64,000 bases of DNA from Candidatus Eiseniibacteriota bacterium (GCA_963762255.1 CAVXKA010000002.1:576001-640000), one strand, 5' to 3'; counted from the stretch's first letter, positions 2,980 to 61,519 are shown. Numbers and translations are program-made. The notes: a model not told the origin generated them from the letters alone.

Positions 2980-2983
2980 CGGC

Positions 2984-3875: not shown

Positions 3876-4061
3876 GGTGATGTGGTTAGGTATCGGCCGG
3901 TTGCGGTCGCAGTTGAGCGAGCTTCGCCCCGCGAGGGGTTATGCCACCGGGGCAAACCCTGTATCATCCCCCGGCCTCGCCCGCGGCCGTCCCCGAGGGG
4001 ACGCCCTTGGTCGCCCATCACGTTTGATTACGGGAGCTTACCGCCCTTGCCGTTGCGCGCC

Positions 4062-4823: not shown

Positions 4824-4828
4824 CCGCC

Positions 4829-5614: not shown

Positions 5615-5620
5615 TCCGTC

Positions 5621-6583
5621 ATGAATGACAGCTACGTCCAGCCCTGGCGCGATCTCCGGCTTGGCGTCTTTTTCATCGTCTCGACCGTGGTGCTGGTCGG
5701 ATTCCTCCTCGTGGTGGGAACCAACCGCCGCATCTTCGAGCGCGCGTACGAACTCCGGCTCTATCTCTCCAACGCGCAGGGCCTCTCCGAGGGCTCAATG
5801 GTCAGCCTCTCCGGCCTCGAGATCGGCCGCGTCACCGAACTCTCCTTCGTTCGGCAGGACACCGCGCAGGTGCTCCAGGTCGACATGACGCTCAGTCGCA
5901 AGTACCACGAGCAGATCACCAAGTCGTCGGTGGCCACCATCCGCACGCTGGGGGTGCTCGGCGACAAGTTCGTGGACATCAGCCTGGGGAACCCCTCCGA
6001 GCCGCCGCTTCCCGAAAAGAGCGCGCTCCCGGTGGCCGGCGAGATTGATTGGGCCGCCACCTTTCAACGCGCGATCAAGATGATGGATGACGTGCAGGTC
6101 TTTCTCCAGAACGCCGACGAAACCATGTCGGCGCTTAATCGCGGCGAGGGCACGCTTGGCATGCTCCTCAAGGATGAGGAGGCGGCCGATCGACTGCGCG
6201 AGACCGTGGCCAACCTCTCCGCCGTCACCAGCGAGCTACGCTCGGGCGACGGCACCGCGGCCCGGCTCCTCTCCGATCCCGCGACCTTCGACAAGCTCGA
6301 CGGCATCCTCACGCGCCTCGACAACCTCACCGCCGCGGCGGACACCGGCAACGGTGCGCTGGCCCGCCTCTTGAGCGACGAGGAACTCGGGGAGCGGCTG
6401 GGGAGCTTCATCGCCGGCTCGGACAGCCTGGTCGCGGCGGTGCGCACCGGCGGCACGACTGGGAAGCTCCTGGAGGACGAGCATCTCTATGAGGACATGA
6501 CTCGGGCGCTCGCCGAGTTGAAGGCGCTCCTCGAGGACATCCGCCTGAACCCGCGGCGCTATTTCAAGGTCTCGGTGTTCTAG
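5621..6583 (+). CDS. mlaD: MlaD/MCE-family protein with long helical extension
   Basis: N-terminal TM helix; MCE motifs GLSEGS-V-L-G-EIG-V and IRTLGVLGDKFVDIS; repeated G-G-L-L helical tail ending NPRRYFKVSVF. Confidence 0.88.
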   Translation: MNDSYVQPWRDLRLGVFFIVSTVVLVGFLLVVGTNRRIFERAYELRLYLSNAQGLSEGSMVSLSGLEIGRVTELSFVRQDTAQVLQVDMTLSRKYHEQITKSSVATIRTLGVLGDKFVDISLGNPSEPPLPEKSALPVAGEIDWAATFQRAIKMMDDVQVFLQNADETMSALNRGEGTLGMLLKDEEAADRLRETVANLSAVTSELRSGDGTAARLLSDPATFDKLDGILTRLDNLTAAADTGNGALARLLSDEELGERLGSFIAGSDSLVAAVRTGGTTGKLLEDEHLYEDMTRALAELKALLEDIRLNPRRYFKVSVF

Positions 6584-6768
6584 CCGGACCACGGGCGTGG
6601 CCGCCAGAGGCCCGTGTGTGCGCCGCTTCGCGCATTCGGTTCGGCTGATTTCAACCACACAGTAGTCGCGAGAGATCGAGCGCGCGTTCTCCTCAAGCCT
6701 AGCGAGGTTGCGCTCGATATATGGGCAGGAGCGGCAGCCGCTCCAGAACTCCAACGAGAGACGGCCCC

Positions 6769-7191
6769 ATGCCCATGGCCTCGCGACACCATCGACCGCA
6801 GACCGCCGCGCTCAACCTGAGCGGCGCCTGGACCCTCATCGGCCCCGGCAGCCTCGTGCGCGGCGAACTCCTCCTGACCGGCGACGTGCTCCTGCATGGT
6901 CGCCTGGAAGGCACCCTCTTCACCGACGGCGAAGTGCGGGTGACGGCGAGCGGTTCCGTGGACGGCGGCGTGCACGCGGTGAAGATCGTCGTGGAGGGAT
7001 CCTGCCGAGGCCGCCTCGAAGCGACTCAGGAAGTGATCCTGCGCCCGGGCTCGCTGGTGCAGGCCGATATCGACGCCGGGCTCCTCACCATCGACGACGG
7101 CGCGCGCTTCGCGGGCGACTTGAGCCTCGGCGAGGGGCGGCCCCAGCCCAGGGTCGTATCCGGCGCCCTCGACAGCCCCGGCCGCGCGTAG
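6769..7191 (+). CDS. Bactofilin (polymer-forming cytoskeletal protein)
   Basis: Beta-helix pattern TLIGPGSLVRGEL..GDVLLHGRLEG..V-G-V-A..IDDGARFAG. Start uncertain (6721/6769/6775). Confidence 0.85.
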   Translation: MPMASRHHRPQTAALNLSGAWTLIGPGSLVRGELLLTGDVLLHGRLEGTLFTDGEVRVTASGSVDGGVHAVKIVVEGSCRGRLEATQEVILRPGSLVQADIDAGLLTIDDGARFAGDLSLGEGRPQPRVVSGALDSPGRA

Positions 7192-21772: not shown

Positions 21773-23941
21773 CTATCGAGAGAGGAGGACAAGCCGCCGG
21801 GTCATCGTGCGTGGACCCACCTGCAGCCGCGCGAAGTACACCCCGTCCGGAGCCGCCCTGCCGTCGTCACCGCGGCCGTCCCATTCGAGGGCGAAGGTTC
21901 CGGGTGCAAGGGACCATGGACCGAGGCGCCGCACCAAGCGCCCCCGCACGTCGATCACGCTGAGGGTGGCCGACTCCCCCATCGAACCGGAGAGGAAACC
22001 CCTGATCGTGAAGTGGAGCCCCGAGGGATTCGGGCTCACCGTCAGCGCGGTCAGCCGCGGGAAGAGATCGCCGCGCGCGTGGGAGGCGAGAAGCCAGCCG
22101 TCGGGGTCCGGCACCATCTCCCAATCGCCGGCGGGGAGCTCCACCGACCATTCGGTGAGGCGCCCGTCGACCCAGCGGACATCGTCGATCGCCGCGTCCG
22201 AGGAGACATAGCGGACGTGTACGGGCATCCGAAACAAGGGGACACCAGGTTCTTCCTGGGTCTGACGCGCGCGCACATCGAGGACGATGCCCCCGCCGGA
22301 GTTGGTCGAGCGCCAATCCCACTCGAACTTGGGATACCCCTTCCCGATGAGCCAGGGATGAAAGAACCAGGTGAGATCCTCGCCGAGTACGTCCTCGGCG
22401 GCCTGCTTGAAGTTCTCGGTCGCGACGTTACCGAAGGCGTGCCGGCGGGCGTAGCGGGAGAAGATCTCGAGGAACCGGCGATCGCCTTCGACCGCCGCCT
22501 GCTGAAACGCGCGGTCTCCGACGAGTTCCCCCTCCAGGTGCTGCATCCGGGAAATGGACCGCAGCATGTGCAGCACGCGGGCGCCCTTGTTGTACACGAC
22601 GAAGGACAGAAGGCGACCGGGCGGATGATCGAGAAGCGGATGGTCCAGATGGGGATTCGCCTTGTACACGCTGTCGCGCAGAGCAAGCCCGGCGCGTAGA
22701 GCGTCGGTGCCGTAGAGGTGCTCGGCGAAGAGCAGTTCGAAATACGTGGCGAACCCCTCGTTGAGCCAGATGTCGCGCCAGGTGGAGGGCGTGACGAGGT
22801 TCCCCCACCACTGATGAGCAAGCTCGTGCGCGTAGAGCCCCTCGGACTTGCGGTCGCCGCGCACCGCGGAGTAGGCGATGAGCGAGTTGGTCTGGTGCTC
22901 CATCCCGCCGCCGAAGAGTCCCAGGGTCATCGCGTAGCGCGCGAATGGGTACGGGTAGACGCGCGAGTAGAACTCCATCATCGCCGGAACGTTCAGGAAA
23001 TCGCTCCGCGTCTTGTCGATTCGGTCTTCGAACGTGAAGTACTCGAGGGGAACGCCGTCCGGTGCGGCGTCCTCCAGTCGGACGAAGTTCCCGACGTAGA
23101 ACGCCACCAGGTAGGTCGCTACCGGCTCGTCCATGACCCACCGCATCCGACGGCGGCCGTCCACGCGCCGGTCCTCCACCAGCGTGCCGATCGCCGAGGC
23201 CTCGCGCCCTTCCGGCACGTCCAGCGTGATCGACACCGCGGCCTTGTCCCAGGGAACGTCGTGCGAAGGAAACCAATGACGGGCGTAGACCGGCTCCGCG
23301 AACGTGTGGACGTCGAGCGACGTGAAGACCATGCCGCCGGGGACGCCCGATTCGCCGATGCAATCCGAGTTCGCCGACGCGTACGTGATGGCGATCTCGA
23401 AGCGTCCTTCTCGCGGGATCGAGGAGAGCGGCCCGATGTGGACGAGCCCCGTCGATTGTGCGAACGGCGCAGGCACAGGCGCCGCGCCGGCGCCGAGCGA
23501 CACCAACGCGCGTTCCACCGCGCAATCGACGAGATCGAGGTCTACGGCGTTGATCGGTTTGAGAGCGCGGATGGTGAGGGTCGTGGTGGCTCGAAAGCTC
23601 TTGGCTCTTTCGTCCAGCTCCTCGATGTGAATGTCGTAGCGGAGCACATCGAGGCTGTCGGGTTGGGACGGAGGATCCATCGACACGAGTCGCGCGCAAT
23701 CCGTTCGCGTGGTCTCGTATCGAGTGAGGGCCTCGAGAACGTCCGCGCGCGAAGCATCGAGAAGCCACGGCAGGTCCGCGTCCGGCACCAGTCCCTGCTC
23801 CATGTAGGGGATGAGCAGGTCCAGGTTGGGAGCCGAGGGCGAGGGCGCCGCGCTCACTGCGGATTGCGCCCCGAGCCGCATCGCGAGGAATCCGGAGAGG
23901 AATATGAGACCGGCTGCCCGGCGGGTGGTGAGGTTCTTCAC
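21773..23941 (-). CDS. Secreted M1-family aminopeptidase with C-terminal FlgD-Ig/T9SS-like domain
   Basis: GGMEH; HELAHQWWG followed by WLNEGFA; YNKGA; C-terminal SPNP..DVRGRLVR..WDGR..G..DGVYFARL. GTG 23941 start inferred from the signal peptide. Confidence 0.88.
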   Translation of the reverse strand: MKNLTTRRAAGLIFLSGFLAMRLGAQSAVSAAPSPSAPNLDLLIPYMEQGLVPDADLPWLLDASRADVLEALTRYETTRTDCARLVSMDPPSQPDSLDVLRYDIHIEELDERAKSFRATTTLTIRALKPINAVDLDLVDCAVERALVSLGAGAAPVPAPFAQSTGLVHIGPLSSIPREGRFEIAITYASANSDCIGESGVPGGMVFTSLDVHTFAEPVYARHWFPSHDVPWDKAAVSITLDVPEGREASAIGTLVEDRRVDGRRRMRWVMDEPVATYLVAFYVGNFVRLEDAAPDGVPLEYFTFEDRIDKTRSDFLNVPAMMEFYSRVYPYPFARYAMTLGLFGGGMEHQTNSLIAYSAVRGDRKSEGLYAHELAHQWWGNLVTPSTWRDIWLNEGFATYFELLFAEHLYGTDALRAGLALRDSVYKANPHLDHPLLDHPPGRLLSFVVYNKGARVLHMLRSISRMQHLEGELVGDRAFQQAAVEGDRRFLEIFSRYARRHAFGNVATENFKQAAEDVLGEDLTWFFHPWLIGKGYPKFEWDWRSTNSGGGIVLDVRARQTQEEPGVPLFRMPVHVRYVSSDAAIDDVRWVDGRLTEWSVELPAGDWEMVPDPDGWLLASHARGDLFPRLTALTVSPNPSGLHFTIRGFLSGSMGESATLSVIDVRGRLVRRLGPWSLAPGTFALEWDGRGDDGRAAPDGVYFARLQVGPRTMTRRLVLLSR

Positions 23942-24257
23942 GGCGTGGCAATAGTTTAGCCGGTGCCGGGGCCGTTGAGGATGCCGAGCTGGAGTCCCGC
24001 CACGCGCGTCACGGCCGGAGCGGCATTTTCCCCAAATCGCGGCTGAGGCCAGCCAGCATTCGCAATTCACTGCCCGGCAATGCGTTCGACCCGCCGAGGC
24101 GGAGGCGGCTTCCGGCGCTTGCCGCGTCCGACCCGGGGACCGGGGCATCTCCCCCAGTGCGTTTGCCCAGTTATCGAGGCCTCCCGAGGGAGGAGCGGCC
24201 GCCTATTTGATTATTCGATAATCGGTTACGGCCCGTTTTGGCACTGCCACCGGCCAG

Positions 24258-24273
24258 TGGCACCCGCCTTGCG
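24258..24273 (+). promoter_or_regulatory. Sigma54 (-24/-12) promoter of the small lipopeptide gene
   Basis: TGGCACccgccTTGCG matches TGGCAC-N5-TTGC exactly, 80 bp upstream of ATG 24353. Confidence 0.75.
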
Positions 24274-24352
24274 TTTGTCTCCTGCGATCGCGCACCCGAA
24301 GGCGCATCGGTCTCTCTCCCGGGAGTCGGGGGAGCGCAAGGAGGGAAAGGTC

Positions 24353-24535
24353 ATGAAGCAGCACTCGATCATCCGGAAGCTGGCCCTGGTGGGAGCATTT
24401 GTAGGTATCGCCGCGTTCGCGGTGGGATGCGGGCAGACGACCCCGACCGGGGTGGATGTGCAGCAACTGGAATCGGAGCAGGACCTTTCTCAGCAGGGTG
24501 GGGGCGTCCAAGACTGGGACCAAGTTCCTCGTTGA
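24353..24535 (+). CDS. Small secreted lipopeptide (60 aa)
   Basis: AAGGAGG RBS; MKQHSIIRK, hydrophobic core, lipobox FAVGC, then an acidic Q-rich tail ending VQDWDQVPR. Confidence 0.75.
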   Translation: MKQHSIIRKLALVGAFVGIAAFAVGCGQTTPTGVDVQQLESEQDLSQQGGGVQDWDQVPR

Positions 24536-24536
24536 C

Positions 24537-27500
24537 CTAGTCGCGCACAGCTAGGAGAGCAGCTCTCGTGCGCGGAAACAACAAGTAATCCCTCTTCAGA
24601 TCCGCCGACTCGAAGGAGTCGGCGATCTGCGTTATGGCCGCCAGCACAGCTTTCTGAATGAGGAGGCGCTGAGTTGCATGTGAGCTCCGGATCAGCTCCA
24701 CGCCCCACGTTGCCAGGTCCATTTGACGCCCCTCTGACTTCAGACTCTTCATCAACTCTCCAGGGGCATCACCCGGTGCTTCCCACCCCAGCTCCCAACC
24801 TATGATTCTGAAGACTGGCTGCGCGAAGGGAAACTTCCCAGTTTGGAAGAAATCTGCGCCTACTTGGAAGTGAGTTCGTGCGACGTCGGGCGCATCAAGC
24901 TTCCAGTGAGCTAGTGCCAGGAGAACAGAACTCATGGCTTCAGCATCGGCCATACCGCTCCGCCGATAGCCTAGGACTGAGTTGTGGAATCGGTCACGCG
25001 CTGATTCCCACCTGCCGGCCCCCGAATCCAATAGACCCAGACATTCATCAATGAACCCGGAATGTCGCCATCTTTCTGCCTCAGCCATTGCCTGTAGACT
25101 CCCAGCGATCAAGTCTGGGAATCCAGCTCGGCAGCCGAGAAACATGCCCAGTCGATAGCATTGCGTGAGCAGCACATGGTCTTCAGAGCGCCTCCCCCTT
25201 TCAAGAAGCCGGGCCTGCCGTCTCAGGACCGGGCCCAGATGGCCCAGGTTGACTTCATAGAAGGCAACTGCATTTTCCGCCAAGTCTGCCATACGGTCGC
25301 TACCAAGGGCCATCGCAACAGAGATAGCTCGTGTACCGGTCCGATGTGCCTGACGTACCTTCCCAGCCTCCATCGCGAGAGATCCTGCCCGGCTCGCGAT
25401 CATCACGTAGTCCTTCCACCGCCCGGCCTCGGCGGCAAGTCCTGCGGCCCGAGTCGCGATGGACTCTCCAAGGACTTGCTCCCCCGTATTCTGCATAACT
25501 CCAGCTATGGCATGGAGGAACAGCGGTTCCCGAGCACACAGCTCCTCACCCAACGCGCGCTGAGCCGCCGCTAGGTAATGCTGCATCTCCGCCAGCAGCC
25601 TTTGTTGCCCAGCCGCCCGCGCCCGCCCCACAAAGTACCTCAGCAGCAGTTCTTTGCTTGGAAGATTCCCCGGATCCAGCGTGCCGTAGACCTCGTCGGC
25701 CTCCTCGAAATGCCCGGTCTGCCACAGGAACTCCGCCTTTTGGAGTCGCGCCCAGATGCGATCGCTCGCCGAAATCCCCGTCAACGCGATCAGTTCATCG
25801 CACTCGCTCACCGCCCGCTGCCAATCCCCCACCGCGAATCGCGCAGTGGCTAGCATCTTCCGCCACTCCACCGCCTCGGCGGCATCCGGCATCGCCTTCA
25901 AGAGATCTTCCAGAACCCGCACTTCCTCGGGGAATCGTCCTAGACGTTGCACCGCGCGCAGCGCTACCTCCCAAACAAAACGGTGGTGCGCGGCATCGAG
26001 GTTTCCCTCCTCCACGACCCGCGCCCAGAACCCGATGACCGCTTCGAACCGGCCGGCTCCGATCGCCGCGCTCAGCGCGTCTTCCAGATATCGCACGGGA
26101 AGGCGGCCGTGCCGCACCATCTCGCCGGCCAGAGCGAGATCACCCGGGTGAACACCGGGGTCCGCCTCCAGACACCGACAGACATCGGCAAGACACGCGT
26201 CGCTCAAGTGGCCTTCGGCGACGTCCATCAACGCACTCTGCACCATGCGATCGGCCATGCGTTCCTGCAGCTCGCCTCGCTCGTAATCCCGCTGTGAGAG
26301 CCCGAGCGTCTCCAGCTCCCGCTCGACTTCCAGCAGTGGCGCGCCTGCCATCCCGAGAGCCCGGCCCAGTGACACCCACCGCCACCCCCGCTCGCTCCAG
26401 GCCAGCAGTGACAGCGCGTCGCGCGCCGAGCCACTGGCATGGGACCAGATCCTCACGACTTCCGCGCTCATCGCCTCGTCGGTGAGGTCCGCACCCGAAC
26501 CGGATCCGACCTGCTTGAGGCGAACCAGGGACAGAGGACTCGCGCCCGCGCCCACCTCGGGAGGCTCCTTCGCGGCTCCGTAGCCTTCCTCCTCGGGGAA
26601 CAGGTCATCGCGCAGGGACCTCAATGCGGCGATGTCCGGTCCGGGCCACGACGCATCGATGGAACGCGTCGTCGTCATGACCCACGCCCCGTCCGCGTCA
26701 TCCTCGGTCGCTGACGCGGCCTTGAGTACGCATGTGCGCGATCCGGACCCTTCCTCCTCCCGACTTACGACGAATGAGCGCAGGAGGCGCGACTCGAGAT
26801 CTCCTGCGCGCTCGGGCCAGGGAACGACCGCATCTTGTCCCGAGAATCGCTCGACCAGCTCGCGCGCGAGAATCACCGGATCGGGGTCGCCCGGCGAGGC
26901 TTCCAATAGGTCGCGCACCGACTCCAGCGGCTGCTCCGCAAGCGCCGTCCAACCATCCGCGACCAGAGCACGGACCATCGCTCGGCAGAGGGTCTTGCGT
27001 CCGCTCCCCACCCGACCGCGAACCAGGATGCCGCCGGTGCGTCCTGTCGGAAGTCCCCGCGCCCACGACCTCCATTCGGCAAGCTGACTCTCCAATCCGT
27101 AGACGCCGCCGTGCGTGACGGGCGGCCCCCAAGCATCCGTGCGCGCGCGCAGGTCATCCCAGTCACCGATGCCTCGTACCGCTGGGTCCGAGCTTCCCAA
27201 GAGCGCAATGAGATCGACCAACTCTCTCGACACGACGCGGCGAGACGACGGCAGGAAGCTTCCCGACACGAGCCGGCGCAACATCTCGGCGGGGCTCGCG
27301 CCCTCCAACGGATGGCGCCCGTCAATCCACATCACCGCGGTGACTGCGAGCGAGAAAAGATCGGCCGCCGGACCGGCGCCCTCACCACGAGCGCTCTCGG
27401 GCGCCATGTACCCGGGCGTGCCCCGCACGCCGGCCGCGCGCGCTTCTGTCAACGGAAGCGTCAACCCCAGATCGGCCACCTTGGCGCGCCAGCGCTCGCC

Positions 27501-27929
27501 TTCCCGCCATACGAGCAGGTTTCCGGGAGCGATGTCGCCGTGGACGAAACCTCGACGGTGCATGTAGGCAAGACCGCGCAAGGACTGGGTCAACGCGGCC
27601 CACACTGCGGCCTCGCCCCCTTCGTCCCACAGGCGCTCGGCGGGCACCGCCGGCACGAATTCGAGCAGATGAGCGACGTCGTGGCCGTCGCGGACCAGAC
27701 CGCGCGACTCGATGAGGCATGGATGGGAGAGCGTCCCGAGGAGGCGGTACTCGGCGACCAGGCTGTCGCACGACGCCGAGGACTCTGCGATCTTGAGCGC
27801 GGCGACGTGGCCTGTCCAAGTGTCGCGCACGCGGAAGAGGCGTCCTTCCGCGCCGCGCGCGAGCGGGGTCCACTCGGTGAACCGGCCGCCGAAACGCAGT
27901 GTGTCTTCTGTGCTCACCGCCACGTTCAC
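24537..27929 (-). CDS. Ser/Thr protein kinase fused to a degenerate P-loop NTPase and TPR-like helical repeats
   Basis: Kinase motifs ALK, HGDIAPGNLL, ADLGL, GTPGYMAPE, ADLFSL; P-loop-like GRVGSGRKT; TPR-like C-terminal half. AGGAG RBS before GTG 27929. Confidence 0.8.
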   Translation of the reverse strand: MNVAVSTEDTLRFGGRFTEWTPLARGAEGRLFRVRDTWTGHVAALKIAESSASCDSLVAEYRLLGTLSHPCLIESRGLVRDGHDVAHLLEFVPAVPAERLWDEGGEAAVWAALTQSLRGLAYMHRRGFVHGDIAPGNLLVWREGERWRAKVADLGLTLPLTEARAAGVRGTPGYMAPESARGEGAGPAADLFSLAVTAVMWIDGRHPLEGASPAEMLRRLVSGSFLPSSRRVVSRELVDLIALLGSSDPAVRGIGDWDDLRARTDAWGPPVTHGGVYGLESQLAEWRSWARGLPTGRTGGILVRGRVGSGRKTLCRAMVRALVADGWTALAEQPLESVRDLLEASPGDPDPVILARELVERFSGQDAVVPWPERAGDLESRLLRSFVVSREEEGSGSRTCVLKAASATEDDADGAWVMTTTRSIDASWPGPDIAALRSLRDDLFPEEEGYGAAKEPPEVGAGASPLSLVRLKQVGSGSGADLTDEAMSAEVVRIWSHASGSARDALSLLAWSERGWRWVSLGRALGMAGAPLLEVERELETLGLSQRDYERGELQERMADRMVQSALMDVAEGHLSDACLADVCRCLEADPGVHPGDLALAGEMVRHGRLPVRYLEDALSAAIGAGRFEAVIGFWARVVEEGNLDAAHHRFVWEVALRAVQRLGRFPEEVRVLEDLLKAMPDAAEAVEWRKMLATARFAVGDWQRAVSECDELIALTGISASDRIWARLQKAEFLWQTGHFEEADEVYGTLDPGNLPSKELLLRYFVGRARAAGQQRLLAEMQHYLAAAQRALGEELCAREPLFLHAIAGVMQNTGEQVLGESIATRAAGLAAEAGRWKDYVMIASRAGSLAMEAGKVRQAHRTGTRAISVAMALGSDRMADLAENAVAFYEVNLGHLGPVLRRQARLLERGRRSEDHVLLTQCYRLGMFLGCRAGFPDLIAGSLQAMAEAERWRHSGFIDECLGLLDSGAGRWESARDRFHNSVLGYRRSGMADAEAMSSVLLALAHWKLDAPDVARTHFQVGADFFQTGKFPFAQPVFRIIGWELGWEAPGDAPGELMKSLKSEGRQMDLATWGVELIRSSHATQRLLIQKAVLAAITQIADSFESADLKRDYLLFPRTRAALLAVRD

Positions 27930-28050
27930 GCCAAGCTCCTGAAAGCGTTGACTGGAGAGGGTCGGACATCGAAACTCTACCCGACTTTGCGCGGGGGCGC
28001 ACCGGGGCTCTGTGCTCCAGGGGCCCCGCACCAGAATCATGGAGGCTGTC

Positions 28051-29004
28051 ATGCGCACGTTCTATCCGCCCATCGAGCCGTACCGCTCCGGTCATCTCCG
28101 GGTGTCCGATCTCCACGAGATCCACTACGAAGAGTGCGGTCGTCCGGACGGTCTCCCTGCCGTGTTCGTGCACGGGGGTCCCGGGGGCGGGATCGTTCCG
28201 CTCTACCGTCAGTTCTTCGATCCAGATGCGTACCGCATCGTTCTCTTCGAACAGCGAGGATGCGGGGAGAGTCGGCCGCACGCGAGCCTTGTCGACAACA
28301 CGACGTGGCACTTGGTCGAGGACATGGAGAAGCTGCGCGAGTCCCTGGGGATCTCGAAATGGGTTGTGTTCGGCGGCTCCTGGGGCAGCACGCTCGCCCT
28401 CGCGTACGCGGAAACCCACCCGGAGCGCGTGCTTGCCCTGGTGCTGCGCGGCATCTTCCTTCTGCGCCCGAGCGAGATTCGGTGGTTCTACCAGGACGGC
28501 GCCAGCCACATCTTCGCGGACGCCTGGGAGCACTACGTCGAGCCGATCCCCCTCGAAGAGCGCGACGACTTCGTTCGCGCCTACTATCGGCGGCTGACCA
28601 GCGATGATGCCTCGGTGCGCGCGCGCGCGGCCAAGGCCTGGAGCATCTGGGAGGCATCCACGAGCAAGCTCTTTCCCGATCCGAACCTCATCGCCACGTT
28701 TTCGCAGGACGCCTTCGCCGACGCGTTCGCGCGAATCGAGTGCCACTATTTCGTGAACAAGGGCTTCTTCACACACCCGGATCAACTGCTGGACGGTGCC
28801 GAGCGCATTCGGCACATTCCCGGCGTCATCGTTCAGGGACGCTATGACGTCGTCTGCCCGATGGTGAGCGCCTGGGACTTGCACAGGCGGTGGCCGGAGG
28901 CCGAGTTCCACCTGATCCCTGACGCAGGTCATGCCGCCAGCGAGCCTGGGATTACGGACAGATTGATCCAGGCGACGGACCGGTTCCGCAAACTCATTGT
29001 TTGA
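28051..29004 (+). CDS. pip: Prolyl aminopeptidase (proline iminopeptidase, S33)
   Basis: HGGPG, QRGCG-S-PHA, GGSWGSTL, VQGRYDVVCP, DAGH; GGAGG RBS. Confidence 0.95.
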   Translation: MRTFYPPIEPYRSGHLRVSDLHEIHYEECGRPDGLPAVFVHGGPGGGIVPLYRQFFDPDAYRIVLFEQRGCGESRPHASLVDNTTWHLVEDMEKLRESLGISKWVVFGGSWGSTLALAYAETHPERVLALVLRGIFLLRPSEIRWFYQDGASHIFADAWEHYVEPIPLEERDDFVRAYYRRLTSDDASVRARAAKAWSIWEASTSKLFPDPNLIATFSQDAFADAFARIECHYFVNKGFFTHPDQLLDGAERIRHIPGVIVQGRYDVVCPMVSAWDLHRRWPEAEFHLIPDAGHAASEPGITDRLIQATDRFRKLIV

Positions 29005-32032: not shown

Positions 32033-33388
32033 TCAGCCGCACCCGCCCTTGGCCACGACCTTGCGCTGCAACACGACCTTCCTGACGTAGTCGCGCTCGG
32101 GGGCGTTCCGGCCGTTGAACCACGACGGGCGGCCGCCCGCCGTCATCAATACCGAAGCCTCCGGGCAGTCGGGCGCGGGGGCATGGCTGAGCTTCTCGGG
32201 TTGGGCCGATGCAATCATGTCCCCGACGCTCACGTGGAACCGCCAGGCCGGCGCGTCGTCGGCGCCCCCCCGATCGGAGGAAACCCGCTCCGCCACGCAC
32301 GGGCTCGGAGGATACGCATCGAGCCAGCCGTTGATCCCACCATCAATGACGTAGATATTGATCACGCCCTGCGTCTTGAGATGCTTCCACGCCTCCGTGG
32401 CGGCGCGCTCACCGTTGCTGATCAAGAAGGTGATCTGATTGTCGGGGAGTCCCTGCATCTCCCGCAGGAAGACTTGATCCCCGGTGCGTTGAGGATCGAC
32501 CCGGCGTGAACCGGCAAGGTGGAATCGGTTGTAGTCATCTTCCGGGCGCACGTCGATGATCCGCACCGCGAGCGAGAGATCCTTGCGCAAGTCGACGACC
32601 TCGACGGGGGCCACGTAGATGGCGCGTGCGGCCAGTTCCGGGCCGCTCTTACCTTGAATCCAGTTCCAGCGCGCCTCCGCATCGGGCTGGCCGATCACGG
32701 CGACGACCGCGGCGAGTCCGACGAGCGCCGCCGCCGCCAGTCGGCCGCGGGTGACGACGCGTCGGGGGCGGCGCGTGGAGGAAGCGCCGGTGCTGTCCGC
32801 GATTCCGCTGCGCGGGCCGAAGTGACGCTCCGAGGCCTCGGCGAGGACGAACATGCCAAGCGCCATCAACACCAGGAGCAGAACCGCCACCCCTGCCGGC
32901 ACGCCGAGCCACTCATCGACGGTGAAGCGACCCAGGTAACTCGACCGCCACCACGCGTCGAAGCGATGAACGGTCTCGCCGAACAGGAACACACCGCCCA
33001 ACCCGCCGAGCACGAAAGCGATCCCGTCGAGCTTGAGCGTCGAGGCGGCGACCAGGGACGTGCCCGGGCAGAAACCGCCCACGACGAAGCCCACCCCCAT
33101 GACGAGCCCCCCCACGATCCCCGGCCAGAGATAGGTCGGGTTCACCCAGACCTTCTGCATGTCGATCAGTTGGAGCGACGACGCCAGAAAGATGAGCACC
33201 GCGGCCACGATGATCCCGGTGAACATCACCTTGAGCACGGTCATCTCGCGCAGATAGAACTGCGCGGCCAGCTTCCGCGAATCTCCGAAGCCGGACATCT
33301 CGAGCACGGCTCCAAAGGCCATCCCGATGGATAGGAAGATGAAAAACTCGATCAGCGTCCCGAGAGCGGCGGGATGAAAGGGCGCCAT
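32033..33388 (-). CDS. YeeE/YedE sulfur-compound transporter subunit fused to a rhodanese-like domain and a GGCG tail
   Basis: Multi-TM region with FG..LE.SGF and GGFCPGT; rhodanese IIDVRPEDDY..HL-GS..IDGGINGW; C-terminus KVVAKGGCG. Confidence 0.82.
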   Translation of the reverse strand: MAPFHPAALGTLIEFFIFLSIGMAFGAVLEMSGFGDSRKLAAQFYLREMTVLKVMFTGIIVAAVLIFLASSLQLIDMQKVWVNPTYLWPGIVGGLVMGVGFVVGGFCPGTSLVAASTLKLDGIAFVLGGLGGVFLFGETVHRFDAWWRSSYLGRFTVDEWLGVPAGVAVLLLVLMALGMFVLAEASERHFGPRSGIADSTGASSTRRPRRVVTRGRLAAAALVGLAAVVAVIGQPDAEARWNWIQGKSGPELAARAIYVAPVEVVDLRKDLSLAVRIIDVRPEDDYNRFHLAGSRRVDPQRTGDQVFLREMQGLPDNQITFLISNGERAATEAWKHLKTQGVINIYVIDGGINGWLDAYPPSPCVAERVSSDRGGADDAPAWRFHVSVGDMIASAQPEKLSHAPAPDCPEASVLMTAGGRPSWFNGRNAPERDYVRKVVLQRKVVAKGGCG

Positions 33389-33397
33389 GATTCCTCC

Positions 33398-33925
33398 TCA
33401 GTTCCAGAGTCGGCGCAAGGAGCGTGCGAGTGCGTAGGCCGACGCGAAGATCGCGAACATGAATGCGAAGCTCCCCACCGAAAGGACAGCGCCCCCGCTC
33501 AACGCCTGCCCCGACGTGCACCCGCGGGCCATGCGCGCACCGTAGGCCATGATCAGCCCGCCCAGGAACGCGAAGAGCCAGCGCGCGGGGACGGAGACGC
33601 GGGGGCCTCGGCGGGTTTCCGGCCGGAAACGGCGGCTGACGATGCCGGAGATCGCCCCGCCAAGGACGATGCCGAGGAGCATGTACACGCCGGGATGTCG
33701 GAGCGGGGACCGCTCCCCACCCCCGATCTCCGCCATGTAAGCCACGCGATCCACGTGCGCCGGGGCGAACGCGTCCAGGATGGCGACCTGGACATGGGTG
33801 ATCGCCCCCGAAGCGCCGAGACCGTTGCCGGTCACGTAGAAGGAGAGAAAGAGAACGACACCCAGGAGCGCTCCTCCGAGGTAGGGGTTGATGTAGCCGC
33901 GAGGCGGCTTACGTGCACTAGGCAC
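33398..33925 (-). CDS. YeeE/YedE sulfur-compound transporter subunit
   Basis: NPYLGG, GLGASG and YGARMARGCTSGQALSG conserved motifs; four TM helices. Confidence 0.88.
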   Translation of the reverse strand: MPSARKPPRGYINPYLGGALLGVVLFLSFYVTGNGLGASGAITHVQVAILDAFAPAHVDRVAYMAEIGGGERSPLRHPGVYMLLGIVLGGAISGIVSRRFRPETRRGPRVSVPARWLFAFLGGLIMAYGARMARGCTSGQALSGGAVLSVGSFAFMFAIFASAYALARSLRRLWN

Positions 33926-36182
33926 CGGCGTCTCCCTTCCGGGTGATGTATTCGGATTCGATCTCGTCGTAGCCGTCCACCATCGCCCGCAGATTGGAGG
34001 TCACGGTATGACCGGTTGTAGTCAAGTAGACATGCAGGACTATGAATGCCAGAAACAGCCAGGCACCGAAATTGTGCAGCGGGGCCAGCACACCGAGGCC
34101 TCCCATCCGGTCGGCCAGGTCCGGCCATCGGGACATGCCCCAGATGAGAGTGCCGGTCAGCACCTGCATCGGGAAGAGCACGTTCAGGAGGGTGAGATAA
34201 GTCACCTGCTGGAGCGGATTGAGTCGCTGCTCCACCGTCTTGGGGGATGGGTGCGGACGGCCGAGAAAGATCCCCGACGTGTAGAAGCGCGCCTGATCGA
34301 GAATGCGCGTCAGCATCGCCTCACGCTGAGGAAGGAACCGATGGATGGCTCGGCTGGTCACATGATAGAAGAGCGAGAGGAATCCGTTGGTGACAAGGAT
34401 GAAGGCGAACACATTGTGAAGCGCGATCGCGCGGGGAAGGGACAGCATCGCGTGGTCGCCCGTGAAGTGCACCTGCAACCCGGTGAACATCAACACGAGC
34501 ACGCTTCCCGCCATCAGCCAGTGCCAGATGCGCTCGTAGGTCGTGTAGAGGTAGACCCGCTCGAGCGGCGTATCGCTCGGCCGGCGCGAGCGGCGCATCA
34601 GGAACCGAACCGTCGCGTGAATGGCGACGACGAGTACGACCGCAACGAAGAGCAGAAACCCCAAGCGATCCATCCATCCGCCGCGGGCGTGGCCGAACAC
34701 GTGGAGACCCGGCGGGTCGGGGGACGCGGCGAGCGGTCCCGCCGATAGCCCGGTAGGTATGTAGGGCGCCAGCGGGAGCCCGGCGGCCAGTCGTCCCCCC
34801 GGAGCGTGGCAAGCGTTGCAGTCGTGCATGACCTGCGCCCCCGACTGAACGCCGTGCCGGATCGGGTAGTAGCTCACCGTCGAGACCATGCGGGGATCGG
34901 CCACTCCAAGGCCGACCAGCCGCGCCCGAACCGCATCCACTTTAGCGGCCGTGTCCAATCGAAGCTCGGGGCCTTCCAGATCTCCGTCGCTGTTCAGGTC
35001 GAGGGCCGAAAGGATGGACGCTTCGAAGTGACCGTCCACGAGATACGCTCGCGTCACCCTTTCCCACGGCACCGGGACACCTGCGGGTCCGCTTGTCCAG
35101 GCGAACGAGGACACCGCGTTGAACGGGGCCAGCTTCCAGCGCCCGGAGCCGTCGGGTGCCCGCCTCAATAGAGGAGCGTATCCGGAGTCGTAGGCGGTAT
35201 TGAGCGACTCCCCCGCCTTCATGTCGAATCCGCGCAGTACCATCGCCGGCGACCCGCTCGGGGTCACCACGGTGCTGTCGACGAGCTGCATGGCCGGCCC
35301 GAATAGCTCGGGGACATGGCAGGAACGACAGGCCAGAACTTCCAGGTGTCTCTGCTTGTAGGGGAGGAAGTTGTGGACCTCGAGCGGATCGTGACAGGAC
35401 TGGCAATCGGCCGCGACCAGCTCATGATCGGGGCGCTTGAGATACTCGGACAGATCCATGTGTCGCGGATCGTCCACAAGGAACCCGGGGCGCGAACGCT
35501 TCACCCCCGCATTCATCGGGTTGTTCCCTGCGTAGTGGCAATCGACGCACGTCACCAGTCGGCGCGCATGCGCGTCCCAGGGGTACGCCCTCCCTTCCTT
35601 GCCGCGCAGGTTCAGGTGCGAGTCGGAGATGTTCTGGCCCGAGATGATCTCTCCCGTCCGCAGGGTGAGCAGATAGGTGTGGTCTCCACCGGGACGGAGG
35701 CCGAAATCCGCCGGGATCTCCAGGGGATCGCGGCCGGGGTGGACGATACCGTGACAGGTGGCGCACTGCGCGTCGCGGGGACTGCTCAAGCGCAGAGCTT
35801 CCCGGCGGAGCTTTCCATCCGCGTCATAGGCCTCGGGGGCCACCGGAAACCGTCCTCCATCGAAGTGGCACGACGCGCATTCCACGCGTACGGACCCGGT
35901 CCAGTGATCGTTGTGCGCGAGGATCGACCCGACGTCGTGGCACCCGCCGCAGGTGCGTTCCGAGGAGACCGAATGCCCGGAAATCGCAATCGGTGTCCCG
36001 GCGGAATCGAGCGGGGCAAAGATCGGATGCATGGGATTCGGAGCCGCGAGCTGCGCCGCCCTTGTCGGCACCTCCCGCTCGTTCCCCTGCGCGTGCGCGT
36101 TCGCGGAATGCAATACGGCCGTCCCGACGGCGGCGACGAGCATCCCGGCCGCCCACGTCGTTATGCTGCGATGGATGCTCAT
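33918..36182 (-). CDS. Heptaheme cytochrome c fused to a membrane cytochrome b (FdnI/HyaC-type)
   Basis: Signal peptide; seven CxxCH motifs (CGGCH, CASCH, CATCH, CVDCH, CQSCH, CRSCH, CNACH); cytochrome b motifs ERIWHW, LHN, NPLQQ-TY, LHN..HVY. Confidence 0.85.
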   Translation of the reverse strand: MSIHRSITTWAAGMLVAAVGTAVLHSANAHAQGNEREVPTRAAQLAAPNPMHPIFAPLDSAGTPIAISGHSVSSERTCGGCHDVGSILAHNDHWTGSVRVECASCHFDGGRFPVAPEAYDADGKLRREALRLSSPRDAQCATCHGIVHPGRDPLEIPADFGLRPGGDHTYLLTLRTGEIISGQNISDSHLNLRGKEGRAYPWDAHARRLVTCVDCHYAGNNPMNAGVKRSRPGFLVDDPRHMDLSEYLKRPDHELVAADCQSCHDPLEVHNFLPYKQRHLEVLACRSCHVPELFGPAMQLVDSTVVTPSGSPAMVLRGFDMKAGESLNTAYDSGYAPLLRRAPDGSGRWKLAPFNAVSSFAWTSGPAGVPVPWERVTRAYLVDGHFEASILSALDLNSDGDLEGPELRLDTAAKVDAVRARLVGLGVADPRMVSTVSYYPIRHGVQSGAQVMHDCNACHAPGGRLAAGLPLAPYIPTGLSAGPLAASPDPPGLHVFGHARGGWMDRLGFLLFVAVVLVVAIHATVRFLMRRSRRPSDTPLERVYLYTTYERIWHWLMAGSVLVLMFTGLQVHFTGDHAMLSLPRAIALHNVFAFILVTNGFLSLFYHVTSRAIHRFLPQREAMLTRILDQARFYTSGIFLGRPHPSPKTVEQRLNPLQQVTYLTLLNVLFPMQVLTGTLIWGMSRWPDLADRMGGLGVLAPLHNFGAWLFLAFIVLHVYLTTTGHTVTSNLRAMVDGYDEIESEYITRKGDAGA

Positions 36183-37627
36183 GGCCGGCCTCCCGTGCGG
36201 ATCGGATCGTCCGCGTAGCCGAGGGCGGCCCAGTCCATGCGTCCGCCCTCGCCATGACAGTCGTCACAGGCGAGTGCCCGTTCCTTGGGCGTGACCGTGT
36301 GCGAGAGCGGCCAATAGGTGGCGGTTCGGGCGAAACCGTAGTCGCCGCTGTAGGGAATCCCCGCCGCCCGAGCGCCAAGGCGCAGCGAGGCGTCCCAATC
36401 GAAGGTCTTCCAGTATCCCCCCGCGCCGCCGGTGATCGGCGTGAGGAGAATGGCGTTGGTGCGATCGTAGGGTTGAAGCGCCCGGTGGATCTTGAAAGGC
36501 CAGATGCGGGCCTCCGCTTCTCCGATTCCGCCGTGCGGCCGATTCAAGTCCGTAACCCGGGTGGTATCGATGCGGTCCCCGAGCAGGTAGCGATCGACGC
36601 TGCGGTCGAACCACATGTACTCGGGGGTGATGTCTTGGTCGTAGAGGAACTCCCCCTTGATCTTGAGGTAGTGGTGCGGATCCTCGACCCGGGTCGAGTC
36701 CCCCGCCCGACTCCAGTCCCATGAGGTCTTGGTCGGGAGCTTGCGCGCATAGGTGGGAATGTGACAGGTCTGGCAGGCCACCGAGCGGAGATGCGCGTTG
36801 AGGCGTTCATCAGCGTGCGGCGGGCCGGCGTGGCAGTCCGTACAGGCCACCCCGTTCGCTCCCTCAACGCTGACCGAGAACGAACGCCCTGGAACGCGGT
36901 GCTCGGTTGTGCGGTGGCAATCCACGCAGAGCATCTCCAATCTCCCCATGTGGACGTCATCCCCTTCGGAGGGGTTGTCCAGGCTGCTATCCAGGTCTCC
37001 GTGCTTCACGCCCTGCCCACCACCCCCATAGTTGTGGCAGACACCACAGTTCTCGCGGGAGGGGGTCCCGACCGACTTGGCGGCAGCGAGAAGATCACTC
37101 TCGCTCTTGGGAAGTCCCGCCTCTCCCTTCACATAGGTCCCGCTGTGCTCATGGCAGACGAGGCAGTCCACATTCTCGGACCGGGTGAAATCGAAAGTGC
37201 TGTCGCGCCAGCCATAGCCGGCGTGGCACTTCATGCAGGAGACTTCATTGCCGATCGAGCTGATGCAGAAATTGTTGATCAGGTTCTTCTTGCCGATGCG
37301 CTGCTTGCCCTCGTGCCCGGGCACCACGACCTCGTCTCCGAGCCACTCCCAGTGCGCGGTCTGCATGACCTCCTTGGCCGCCTGCGGGTGGCATTCCAGA
37401 CAGGCCCGAGTCACGTCCTGGGGGGTCTCGAACGGCTTGGAGAAGTACGCACTGTGATCCAGGTGGCTGCGATCGGCGGGACGGTACAAGTTCTCCGCGG
37501 CCGGACGCGCTTCGTGCGGCGGCATACTCAGGTGCGCGCCACTCCAGATCGCTGCCCCGAACGCGACACCGAGCGCCAACGTGACCGGTAGCCAGCGACG
37601 GCGGGAAGGGAGACGCCGGGGGCTCAT
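36179..37627 (-). CDS. otr: Octaheme tetrathionate reductase-family cytochrome c
   Basis: Eight CxxCH motifs plus family motifs GKKNLINNFC, CHAGYGW, GGGG-GVKHGDLD, WDWS-AG and D-ALGY-DP. Confidence 0.88.
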   Translation of the reverse strand: MSPRRLPSRRRWLPVTLALGVAFGAAIWSGAHLSMPPHEARPAAENLYRPADRSHLDHSAYFSKPFETPQDVTRACLECHPQAAKEVMQTAHWEWLGDEVVVPGHEGKQRIGKKNLINNFCISSIGNEVSCMKCHAGYGWRDSTFDFTRSENVDCLVCHEHSGTYVKGEAGLPKSESDLLAAAKSVGTPSRENCGVCHNYGGGGQGVKHGDLDSSLDNPSEGDDVHMGRLEMLCVDCHRTTEHRVPGRSFSVSVEGANGVACTDCHAGPPHADERLNAHLRSVACQTCHIPTYARKLPTKTSWDWSRAGDSTRVEDPHHYLKIKGEFLYDQDITPEYMWFDRSVDRYLLGDRIDTTRVTDLNRPHGGIGEAEARIWPFKIHRALQPYDRTNAILLTPITGGAGGYWKTFDWDASLRLGARAAGIPYSGDYGFARTATYWPLSHTVTPKERALACDDCHGEGGRMDWAALGYADDPIRTGGRP

Positions 37628-38250: not shown

Positions 38251-40257
38251 ATGATCGAAGGCCACGAGACGAAGTCGCTGCCTGAGAACGCCTACGAGCC
38301 GCTCAAGCCGGGCGAGACCTACAAGCCCATCGTCCCCGCCGACGTCCATATGCACGAGCTGACTTGGCGATCGATCCTGTGGGGGCTCGCGCTCTGCGTG
38401 ATCTTCACCGTGGCCTCCGCCTATTCCGGGCTCAAGGTGGGGCAGGTGATGGAGGCGGCGATCCCGATCTCCATCCTGGCGATCGGAATCGCCCGCGCGT
38501 TCCCGAGGCGCTCGACCCTTCTCGAGAACGTCATCATCACCGGGATCGGGGGCGTCTCCGGTTCCGTGGTGGCGGGGGCGATCTTCACGCTTCCCGCACT
38601 CTATGTCCTGCAGCTCAACCCTCACCCGCTCCAGGCGATCTTCATCTGTCTCGCCGGGGCCTGTCTGGGGATCCTGTTCCTCATCCCGCTTCGCCGCTTC
38701 TTCGTGCGCGAGATGCACGGCCAGCTTCCGTATCCGGAAGCGACGGCGATCACCGAAGTGCTGGTGACGGGAGAGAAGGGCGGTTCCCAGGCCAAGCTGC
38801 TTCTGCAGTCCACCGCCATCGCCGGCGTTTACGACTTCTTCGTGACCACGTTCCACGTCTGGAAGGAATACGTGGATTTCCAGTACATCCCGGTGGTACG
38901 GACGGTCGCGGAACGCGCCAAGGTCGTATTCAGCTTCGACGCCATCGGATTCATCCTCGGCCTCGGCTACGTGATGGGTCTGCGGTCCTCCATGATCCTC
39001 TGCGCGGGAGGCGTGCTGGCCAACTTCGTGCTGGTTCCCCTGGTGTGGCTGATCGGCCGGGATCTGACCAGCCCGGTGTACCCGGCCCTCATCCCCATCG
39101 CCGAGATGAGCGCCACCCAGATCTTCCGGGGCTACGTGCGGTTCATGGGGGTGGGGGCGATCGCAACCGCGGGGATCATCGGCATTCTCAAGTCGCTACC
39201 CATCGTGGTGGGCTCGTTCTCGGTGGCGGCAAAGACATTTCAGGCCGGCGGGCACGACTCGGTGGAGCGCACCGACCGGGACATCCCGATGATGAGCATC
39301 CTGCTCGGCATCGTGGTAAGCGCCATCGGCGCGGCCGTGTTCTTCGCGACACTCGGCACCTCGGTGCCGGTGGTCATCGCGGGCCTCGCGCTCATGCTCT
39401 TGTTCTCGTTCTTCTTCACCTCGGTGGCGGCCAATGCCATCGCTACCACTGCCCGCAACCCGGTCTCGGGCATGACCATGCTCACCATCATCATCTCGTC
39501 GGTCGTCCTGCTGAAATTCGGTCTCTCCGGGACCACGGGGATGTTCTTCGTGATGGCCATTGCCGGTATGGTGTGCACCGCACTGTCCGTGTCGGGCCAG
39601 ACCATCACCGACCTCAAGGCCGGCTACTGGATCGGCTCGACCCCCGCCGCCCAGGAGAAGGTCAAGTTCCTCGGCAGCGTGGCGGCCTCGATCGCGGTGG
39701 GGCTCACTATCGTGCTGCTGGCGAAGGCGTTTCAGTTCGGCGAGGCGGCGCCCGGAGACACACGTCAAGTGCTGGCCGCCCCGCAGGCCTCGATCATGAA
39801 GGAACTGGTCGAAGGGTTCATGAGCGGCCGCCCGGTGGCGTACATCCTCTTCGGCGCCGGAGCCATGATGACGCTGGTGCTGGAGATGCTCGGCGTGCCG
39901 TCACTCATCTTTGCGCTGGGCATGTACCTCCCCCTGGAGCTGAACTCCCCGGCGTTGGTGGGCGGGTTCCTGCATCACTTCGTCACGCGTCGCTCGCGCA
40001 AGGCGGAGGCCAAGGCCGGCTCGTTCATGCGGGAGCGCGGGGTGATCATCGCCTCCGGCCTCATGGCCGGAGGGGCGCTTGGCGGCGTACTCGGGGCCGC
40101 GTTCCGGCTGTTCCCCAGCTACACCGAGGACCGGATCCGGACGCCCTTCTACGACTTCGATCCCATCTCGCAGACGATTTCGGCACTCGCCTTCATCGGG
40201 CTGTGCGTCTATCTGTGGCTCGGCGCGACCCGCCGGGTGAAGGAGAGCGGCGCGTAG
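38251..40257 (+). CDS. OPT-family oligopeptide transporter
   Basis: ELTWRS, YSGLKVG, L-YPEATA, NPVSGMT, DLKAGY, APQAS-M; many TM helices. Confidence 0.92.
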   Translation: MIEGHETKSLPENAYEPLKPGETYKPIVPADVHMHELTWRSILWGLALCVIFTVASAYSGLKVGQVMEAAIPISILAIGIARAFPRRSTLLENVIITGIGGVSGSVVAGAIFTLPALYVLQLNPHPLQAIFICLAGACLGILFLIPLRRFFVREMHGQLPYPEATAITEVLVTGEKGGSQAKLLLQSTAIAGVYDFFVTTFHVWKEYVDFQYIPVVRTVAERAKVVFSFDAIGFILGLGYVMGLRSSMILCAGGVLANFVLVPLVWLIGRDLTSPVYPALIPIAEMSATQIFRGYVRFMGVGAIATAGIIGILKSLPIVVGSFSVAAKTFQAGGHDSVERTDRDIPMMSILLGIVVSAIGAAVFFATLGTSVPVVIAGLALMLLFSFFFTSVAANAIATTARNPVSGMTMLTIIISSVVLLKFGLSGTTGMFFVMAIAGMVCTALSVSGQTITDLKAGYWIGSTPAAQEKVKFLGSVAASIAVGLTIVLLAKAFQFGEAAPGDTRQVLAAPQASIMKELVEGFMSGRPVAYILFGAGAMMTLVLEMLGVPSLIFALGMYLPLELNSPALVGGFLHHFVTRRSRKAEAKAGSFMRERGVIIASGLMAGGALGGVLGAAFRLFPSYTEDRIRTPFYDFDPISQTISALAFIGLCVYLWLGATRRVKESGA

Positions 40258-61472: not shown

Positions 61473-61519
61473 TTGCACATCCAGAGGAGGCATTATCACG
61501 GGGACGAATGGAGGTTTCC

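Follow-up and report, generated by a model that had tools for sequence, protein, structure and literature searches.

A sigma54-boxed small lipoprotein gene placed tail to tail with a STAND-type Ser/Thr kinase gene in Candidatus Eisenbacteria: a candidate signal/sensor module

We analysed a stretch of 64,000 nucleotides (nt), in the following called the window (CAVXKA010000002.1:576001-640000). It belongs to a 4.14 Mb metagenome-assembled genome (MAG) of an uncultured soil bacterium of Candidatus Eisenbacteria (G000). The subject is a pair of convergent genes. One encodes a putative lipoprotein of 60 amino acids (aa) and is preceded by a sigma54-type promoter box; the other encodes a large cytoplasmic Ser/Thr kinase with a degenerate STAND-type NTPase and a helical-repeat sensor region. 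The pairing is conserved in two bacterial families, and in one of them the tail of the peptide and the sensor of the kinase switch together. Small lipoprotein and kinase may thus represent a cognate signal/sensor module, a reading that we rate only just short of an even chance. The elements of the locus are as follows.

24195-24225: A+T-rich patch with the near-palindrome GATTAT-TCG-ATAATC, by its sequence a possible activator or IHF site
24258-24272, plus strand: sigma54-type promoter box TGGCACCCGCCTTGC, an exact TGGCAC-N5-TTGC, starting 95 nt before the ATG
24340-24344, plus strand: ribosome-binding site GGAGG, 8 nt before the ATG
24353-24535, plus strand: small lipoprotein precursor, 60 aa, from reading the sequence and the alignment of relatives
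Residues 1-25 of the small protein: signal peptide
24428-24430, plus strand: Cys26 of the lipobox AVGC
24515-24517, plus strand: invariant Trp55
24537-27929, minus strand: cytoplasmic Ser/Thr kinase / degenerate STAND-type NTPase / helical-repeat protein, 1130 aa
27174-27863, minus strand: protein kinase domain, about residues 23-252 (Pfam Pkinase, E 1.4e-25, above cut-off)
26811-27104, minus strand: NTPase (NOD-like) region (AAA_16, 18.4 bits against a cut-off of 32.6)
26991-27017, minus strand: P-loop GRxGxGR(K/R)T, residues 305-313, degenerate yet invariant in 7 sequences
24540-26252, minus strand: C-terminal helical-repeat (TPR/PPR-like) sensor region, about residues 560-1130

The two genes stay together throughout the bacterial family of the window (f1), of which eight genomes were compared. 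Nine f1 loci are available, namely the window, those of G002 to G007 and the metagenome contigs L082 and L083; the contig of G001 ends before the place. Each of the nine shows a small open reading frame (ORF) with lipobox, sigma54 box and GGAG-like ribosome site, convergent to an orthologue of the kinase gene. The stop codons are +1, +12, +5, -4, +2, -12, +10 and +68 nt apart in eight loci, the distance in G007 being unmeasurable because of frameshift errors in its kinase gene. The 68-nt gap (L083, 3998-4065) holds a G+C-rich hairpin followed by a T-run; elsewhere the genes abut or overlap. A profile search in 206 genomes of the class (including the unpublished G081) gave full-length matches to the small protein in f1 only, the rest covering the signal peptide alone. 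Small lipoproteins of genus g26 matching the f1 peptide profile were discarded as unrelated and low in complexity. In the genome of the window one out of nine Ser/Thr kinase genes found has a convergent small lipoprotein gene.

The original prediction described the small gene as a 60-aa ORF with a strong ribosome-binding site, the lipoprotein signal FAVGC and an end reading VQDWDQVPR, whose stop lies 1 bp from that of a convergent 1130-aa protein. All of these features are read in the sequence. The TGA occupies 24533-24535 and the reverse-strand stop of the kinase gene 24537-24539, which leaves one base in between. The product (MKQHSIIRKLALVGAFVGIAAFAVGCGQTTPTGVDVQQLESEQDLSQQGGGVQDWDQVPR) starts with MKQHS, and its signal peptide is made up of a basic n-region and a hydrophobic core running into AVGC. 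Cys26 is followed by a conserved GQT(A/T)PTGVD, a variable polar linker, Trp55 and the tail DQVPR. Gly-Cys-Gly, Thr32 (of (A/T)PTG) and Trp55 are invariant across the nine small-protein sequences. The invariant Trp is located 0-5 residues from the C-terminus. Within lineages its motif is retained while the linker varies: the window shares W(D/E)QVPR with four close relatives, and another lineage has (N/S/G)WW. The genome encodes the lipoprotein maturation enzymes Lsp (137 bits) and Lgt (190 bits). With a signal peptide, a lipobox including an invariant Cys and the maturation enzymes, the small protein has the hallmarks of a bacterial lipoprotein, and lipidation is predicted.

A collection of 5.8 billion proteins holds 19 relatives of 50-65 aa, none of them named and none with a Pfam domain. 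With a ratio of nonsynonymous to synonymous substitution rates (dN/dS) of 0.27 in the closest pair, and of 0.4-0.8 among members of one genus, the small protein is fast-evolving but constrained. Rfam gives no match in the region 23700-24800.

The partner protein had been described as a Ser/Thr kinase with a degenerate P-loop and TPR-like repeats. The frame of its gene is open over 1173 codons, and a public protein collection contains the 1130-aa form starting at 27929. Lys46, Glu60, Asp132, Asn137 and Asp153 are invariant in the f1 kinases. The catalytic loop reads HGD(I/V)(A/S)PGN and thus has no counterpart of the Lys in HRDxKxxN. Apart from this loop Lys, the residues of a Hanks-type Ser/Thr kinase are in place (Lys, Glu, HRD-Asp, Asn and DFG-Asp), and activity is predicted. 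Profile matches of the kinase domain in the PDB are PknA and StkP. The Walker A of the window, GRVGSGRKT, has no Lys at the canonical position. For the sensor region TPR_12 (23.6 bits, cut-off 30.1) and TPR_19 both fall short of the Pfam threshold. As AAA_16 and TPR_12 both stay below their cut-offs, the wordings "degenerate P-loop" and "TPR-like" are fair. A profile of residues 262-1130 finds designed PPR proteins (E 3e-12) and LGN/GPSM2 (E 7e-5) in the PDB, and the sequence profile of the kinase gives no match to solved STAND structures there. Pfam, NCBIfam and PDB searches return only Pkinase, PK_Tyr_Ser-Thr, AAA_16, kinases and generic TPR/PPR models. Matches in PADLOC (mad6, PD-T4-6, MkoA) and NCBIfam are confined to the kinase domain. 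A word-index protein search with the sensor region has the protein of the window and one relative among the matches listed. A membrane segment is absent from the protein (maximum Kyte-Doolittle mean over 19 residues 1.36).

The kinase orthologues of G007 (L043, 8340-12033) and G006 (L044, 7805-12000) are split into at least two frames. In G007, which the DNA-level check of broken kinase frames covered, the breaks are assembly indel errors and not gene decay (83% identity to the DNA of G005, 56 gaps).

The exact TGGCAC-N5-TTGC promoter of the original prediction carries the -24 GG at 24259-24260 and the -12 GC at 24271-24272. All nine f1 loci conserve it as TGGCA[CT]-N5-TTGC, with its first base 69-100 nt before the ATG. 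In the 4.14-Mb genome the strict box occurs 21 times compared to 13 expected from base composition, corresponding to ~0.2 expected per 64-kb window. Twelve of the 21 boxes lie outside coding-like frames, e.g. before groES and a pilin gene. The genome encodes rpoN and has 23 strong matches to Sigma54_activat; in three cases the frame also carries TPR domains. An exact and conserved box together with rpoN and activators in the genome is what would be expected of a sigma54-dependent promoter. The relatives have A+T-rich patches as well, located 30-70 nt upstream of the box and not sharing sequence. The promoter and terminator scan yielded no sigma70-like promoter; its sole terminator-like site is located inside the kinase gene on the minus strand, and no such site was found between the two genes in the window.

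As side observations, the strict box at G000:C1:557423 precedes a GroES-like ORF and the one at G000:C3:124245 a type IV pilin-like ORF. Sigma54-driven groES would be unusual. At 61508-63190 (plus strand), 37 kb from the small gene, the window encodes a sigma54 activator whose sensor domains are XylR_N and V4R.

RNA libraries contain the small gene. Two metatranscriptome runs (X17 and X20), each from a different study, have contigs that cover 24300-24500 with 95-99% likeness; contigs of this type give neither strand nor level, and RNA libraries can hold DNA. They start at about 24296-24299 with no loose end, which is 24-27 nt after the -12 GC, and two DNA runs read through this place. This is a weak hint that the contig starts near 24300 mark an RNA 5' end. 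The X17 contig reaches 24644, ~110 nt into the 3' end of the kinase gene, and its preceding 86 letters differ from the 88 of the window. The 5' end of the neighbouring M1 peptidase gene and the kinase gene beyond 24644 have no cover by RNA contigs of either run, whereby missing cover proves nothing.

Outside f1, 20 loci with kinase homologues from other families of the class were compared. All four loci of family f9 among them have a convergent sigma54-boxed lipoprotein gene (65-75 aa) at 2-27 nt from the kinase stop. A fifth case is found in family f3 (L131, G010:C2), where a sigma54-boxed lipoprotein of 200 aa (2462-3061, plus strand) converges on a kinase-AAA_16-TPR protein of 1282 aa (3179-7024, minus strand) at a distance of 111 nt from the kinase stop, the partner being larger than in f1 or f9. 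A profile of the f9 peptide matches in 18 of 41 f9 genomes and in none of the 165 others of the class. A sigma54-like box precedes the gene by 71-76 nt in all 19 f9 peptide loci, with an exact match in 14 and one mismatch in 5. A convergent kinase is present in each of the 16 loci with enough flank, the other three being cut by contig ends. The recurrence of an adjacent small signal-peptide ORF with sigma54 box, put forward as a check on the original prediction, is therefore seen in 9/9 f1 and 16/16 f9 loci.

The kinases of f9 and f1 are homologous over 935 columns (hhalign, probability 100%, E 8.3e-42). Both motifs are canonical in f9, with the catalytic loop HGDLKPGN and the P-loop GEPGIGKS. 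The latter aligns with the P-loop of f1, and the AAA_16 score of the f9 homologues rises to 43.7 bits. The f9 peptides share MER...STGC(S/G)(N/Q)NAL(L/M)NP. Their C-terminus consists of a 6-7-mer repeated in tandem (2-3 copies); the unit varies between species and mostly ends in Pro (GGNELNP, AGNDLKP, GGQQPNP, DGHIANP). The window contributes to this picture another, distinct peptide family, the RNA-library contigs and, through the kinase, a connection of the two families.

In f9 the repeats and the sensor switch together. When different peptide types of one genus are compared, identity is 76-97% in the kinase domain and 14-40% in the NTPase/sensor part; within a peptide type NTPase/sensor identity amounts to 46-93%. 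Two contigs of one MAG, G180 (L160 = C223 and L161 = C180, both short), match at the DNA level in the kinase domain (84%) as well as in promoter and leader (87%). The 2.76 kb between the matching ends, which take in the final ~18 peptide codons, are without match save one 41-nt hit. The two types on this MAG may stem from two strains or two loci. G016 and G023 (L118, L120) show a like pattern with a block of 2.65 kb. The switching block (2.65-2.76 kb) hence consists of the NTPase and sensor region of the kinase gene plus the 3' end of the peptide gene (15-18 codons). Moreover, the proportion of nonsynonymous differences (pN) is 0.38 in the repeat region compared to 0.11 in the leader. The distance of the sensors correlates with the distance of the repeat units given the leader distance (partial Mantel r = 0.48), a value reached by 2 of 5000 permutations. 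The kinase domain follows the genus, and sensor types cut across genera. Taken together, the f9 pattern is that of pherotype loci, with a variable tail and sensor and a conserved leader and kinase domain. Joint switching in f9 and pairing in two families support a cognate signal/sensor pair for the module in general, and for f1 by homology only.

The covariation of sensor and peptide C-terminus proposed along with the original prediction thus appears in f9 and is not seen in f1. Type switching is absent from the nine f1 loci, where identity to relatives falls gradually from the kinase domain (58-75%) over the NTPase (about 40-65%) to the sensor (20-45%). The sensor is the fastest-evolving part of the f1 locus and has the lowest identity of the whole neighbourhood. 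A sharp C-terminal drop between the kinases of G005 and G007, considered as a candidate type switch, is an artefact of the assembly frameshifts in G007.

A possible course of events in such a module is the following. The sigma54 promoter would be fired by an enhancer-binding protein and give rise to the mRNA of the small gene. Judging from sequence, the 60-aa product would leave the cytoplasm and receive a lipid anchor at Cys26. Specificity would reside in its C-terminal part, where the invariant Trp motif is found, and this part would act as the signal that the cytoplasmic STAND-type kinase reads with its helical-repeat sensor, either directly or after release and re-entry. The kinase might then be activated and phosphorylate its targets. 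The tail-to-tail layout keeps peptide tail and sensor adjacent on the DNA, and therefore both are inherited together. A wider form of this idea is a peptide-pheromone system of the Eisenbacteria, in which sigma54-driven lipoprotein precursors would give rise to C-terminal peptides that are read intracellularly by STAND-type Ser/Thr kinases, and in which the tail-to-tail layout would act as a recombination cassette giving pherotypes. The signals would be the Trp-motif tail in f1 and the tandem 6-7-residue units in f9. This wider form we propose tentatively and would sooner doubt than assert.

Several observations weigh against a signal/sensor module. The lipoprotein ends up outside the cytoplasm and the sensor is located inside, and binding, cleavage, release and import of the peptide are steps that we infer. 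The best-conserved part of the f1 peptide is not the tail but GQTAPTGVD beside the lipid anchor. The degenerate Walker A and the Lys-less catalytic loop are both conserved across f1; therefore the STAND switch may work differently there or not at all. By our filter 15 of the 20 kinase-homologue loci of other families have no such partner, whereby two of them had no downstream DNA. The peptides of f1 and f9 are alike only in signal peptide and lipobox (hhalign, 34 columns, probability 81%). As they share nothing detectable beyond these, the transfer from f9 to f1 rests on kinase homology and gene layout, and f1 itself lacks the switching described above. Finally, tail and sensor are contiguous DNA in f9, and one recombination block would lead to co-variation by linkage alone.

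The last point bears on the possibility that the two gene products have no link at the protein level. The pair would then reflect synteny only, or a coupling by convergent transcription in which the sigma54 transcript runs antisense into the kinase 3' end. The f1 loci do come from one bacterial family with a broadly conserved gene order, which in genus g4 reads LexA, ABC-F, histidine kinase, M1, small gene, kinase and prolyl aminopeptidase. In addition, the missing terminator-like site between the genes in the window and the one RNA contig extending past the small-gene stop are in line with a transcriptional coupling. However, the pairing recurs in f9 with other neighbours and an unrelated peptide sequence, and it survives in G003, which has lost histidine kinase, M1 and prolyl aminopeptidase and still has small gene and kinase paired beside ABC-F. 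An overlap of the genes is not required either, since L083 has its gap with hairpin and T-run. Moreover, the borders of the switching block coincide with the same domain junctions in two genera, between leader and tail and between kinase domain and NTPase, and linkage alone does not predict this. We regard the absence of a protein-level link as quite unlikely.

The opposite locations of lipoprotein and sensor would be reconciled if the cytoplasmic sensor bound the tail of an unexported or mislocalised precursor and in this way reported on export or lipoprotein maturation. Lipoproteins acting as sentinels are known in principle, namely NlpE with the Cpx system. Neither release nor re-import would be needed, which fits a cytoplasmic sensor, and a directly binding pair would co-vary too. 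On the other hand, there is no obvious driver by which a purely internal sentinel would acquire two sharply different types as in the f9 MAG G180, and the tandem C-terminal copies of the f9 peptides look like multiple released units. Such a role therefore appears very unlikely to us.

The kinase could also act as a regulator and the small gene be its target. In this case the kinase pathway would switch the sigma54 promoter on via an enhancer-binding protein, and the lipoprotein would be an envelope or surface output and not a ligand. All five long relatives in the class (1694-2014 aa; L116, L117, L121, L125 and L135 from G017, G036, G011, G030 and G037, related families) fuse Pkinase, AAA_16, TPR, GAF, Sigma54_activat and HTH_8, and so physically join the kinase module to a sigma54 activator. 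In the f9 locus L120, the sole one scanned for neighbours, a TPR-bearing sigma54 activator is located directly upstream of the peptide gene. The rpoN gene and the activators of the window's genome, including the three TPR-bearing ones, would suit this explanation as well. Yet no activator lies beside the pair in f1. An FHA-bearing sigma54 activator linking kinase and promoter was considered and dropped, as no FHA domain was found at E <= 1e-5 in 23 scanned frames, 20 of them with a sigma54 domain. The closest homologue of the f9-locus activator in G000 is encoded at C1:1632483-1634090, and its neighbours as well as those of two other TPR-bearing activators contain nothing telling. Above all, a regulator and its target would leave unexplained why repeats and sensor switch together in f9 while promoter and leader remain constant. 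We consider it unlikely that the relation is confined to this, and it is compatible with a signal/sensor module in the form of a feedback loop.

Ribosomally made peptides that are read by a cytoplasmic repeat-domain receptor are textbook knowledge for Bacillota and their phages. The original prediction compared the pair to the RRNPP systems. These are defined by two adjacent genes, one for a small propeptide that is secreted and one for a cytoplasmic receptor whose sensor is of the TPR type (10.1101/2021.08.18.456871), and tandemly duplicated propeptide units are reported for RRNPPA systems in PMC11343458. The pair resembles Rap-Phr, NprR-NprX, PlcR-PapR and AimR-AimP in that a small signal-peptide gene is adjacent to the gene of a cytoplasmic receptor. 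Specificity residing in the C-terminal part of the peptide is a further likeness, here indicated by the f9 switching and proposed for f1, and the 2-3 repeats of the f9 peptides recall the duplicated propeptide units. In contrast, the receptor is a Ser/Thr kinase with STAND-type NTPase outside the Rap, NprR, PlcR, PrgX and AimR families, and for this reason the pair is not a member of RRNPP. The comparison holds as logic and fails as membership. Further differences are the lipobox precursor, the sigma54-type promoter, the convergent genes and the host from a diderm candidate phylum, and import and binding are presumed here.

The agr locus of staphylococci is a polymorphic pherotype locus, and ComX of the ComQXPA system has a conserved Trp near its C-terminus. 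As in ComQXPA of Bacillus subtilis, signal and sensor form one hypervariable block in f9, the output part is conserved and types coexist. According to part of PMC4408185, ComQXPA pherotypes are coupled to striking polymorphism and coexist in soil at the millimetre scale. The receptor of these loci differs, as it is a membrane histidine kinase with extracellular sensing. A modifying enzyme like ComQ or AgrB is not found beside our pair, and the switching is a feature of f9 and not seen in f1.

With regard to the receptor, the arrangement of effector, NOD NTPase and helical-repeat inducer sensor is shared with the STAND proteins MalT of E. coli and PknK. PknK of Mycobacterium tuberculosis is a STAND Ser/Thr kinase, and TPR is a usual sensor type of STAND proteins, as stated in the available portion of PMC4381067. 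The same portion describes no cognate neighbouring ligand gene for MalT or PknK. The protein of the window further differs from STAND proteins by its degenerate Walker A and the AAA_16 score below cut-off. The same kinase-NTPase-repeat module is seen in the f9 locus and in the sigma54-activator fusions of other Eisenbacteria. Compared to those, f1 has no activator domain or gene at the locus, a single-Trp tail without repeats, a degenerate P-loop and flanking peptidases. Our search of the literature, restricted to open-access papers and preprints and not exhaustive, gave no description of such a pair, be it in a diderm or with a STAND Ser/Thr kinase as receptor.

The pairing hints at a form of peptide communication that has until now been known chiefly in Gram-positive bacteria. 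Should the lipoprotein be the signal of the kinase, bacterial STAND kinases of the PknK type would get their first candidate ligand class, as none is named in the portion of PMC4381067 referred to above. It would also represent a new route from a lipoprotein precursor to a signal, and the f9 types would be natural cognate and non-cognate pairs for a specificity test. The conservative part alone comprises two unannotated small-protein families and, for an uncultured phylum, a conserved sigma54-driven gene that is found in RNA libraries.

The wider neighbourhood contains three genes which the original prediction had brought into connection with the pair.

21773-24148, minus strand: M1 peptidase, secreted-looking, with an intact HELAH...E site and a FlgD_ig-like C-terminal domain
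28012-29004, plus strand: prolyl aminopeptidase (TIGR01249, 445 bits against a cut-off of 259.75)
38251-40257: OPT transporter, about 14 kb from the pair

The two flanking peptidases are confirmed by Pfam and TIGR01249. In the longest frame of the M1 gene ~70 codons precede a good signal peptide (...RRAAGLIFLSGFLAMRLGAQSA). The true start is thus probably located near 23941, leaving ~410 nt of intergenic DNA before the small gene. The FlgD_ig-like C-terminus is possibly a secretion tag. A functional link of the peptidases to the pair was rejected, as both are missing in G003 and none lies beside the pair in the f9 locus L120. The transporter is present as claimed, its distance being larger than the ~10 kb given originally. 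It is not inside the 19-kb f1 loci of the relatives. OPT was found in 33 of 41 genomes of the class, and it was not found in the peptide-bearing G023 and G040 (97% and 96% complete). As peptide importer it was therefore discarded, being neither linked to the pair nor specific to peptide-bearing genomes. Flanking peptidases and OPT are outside the conserved core, which agrees with the earlier caution that their presence may be coincidental.

Two further observations concern other parts of the window. A multihaem cytochrome pair with matches to a cytochrome b561 fusion, Cytochrome_cB and MtrC-like proteins is encoded at 33918-37627 and 32033-33388 (both minus strand), adjoining a sulphur-transport/rhodanese protein. 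A frame of 2801 aa is open at 43112-51517 on the minus strand.

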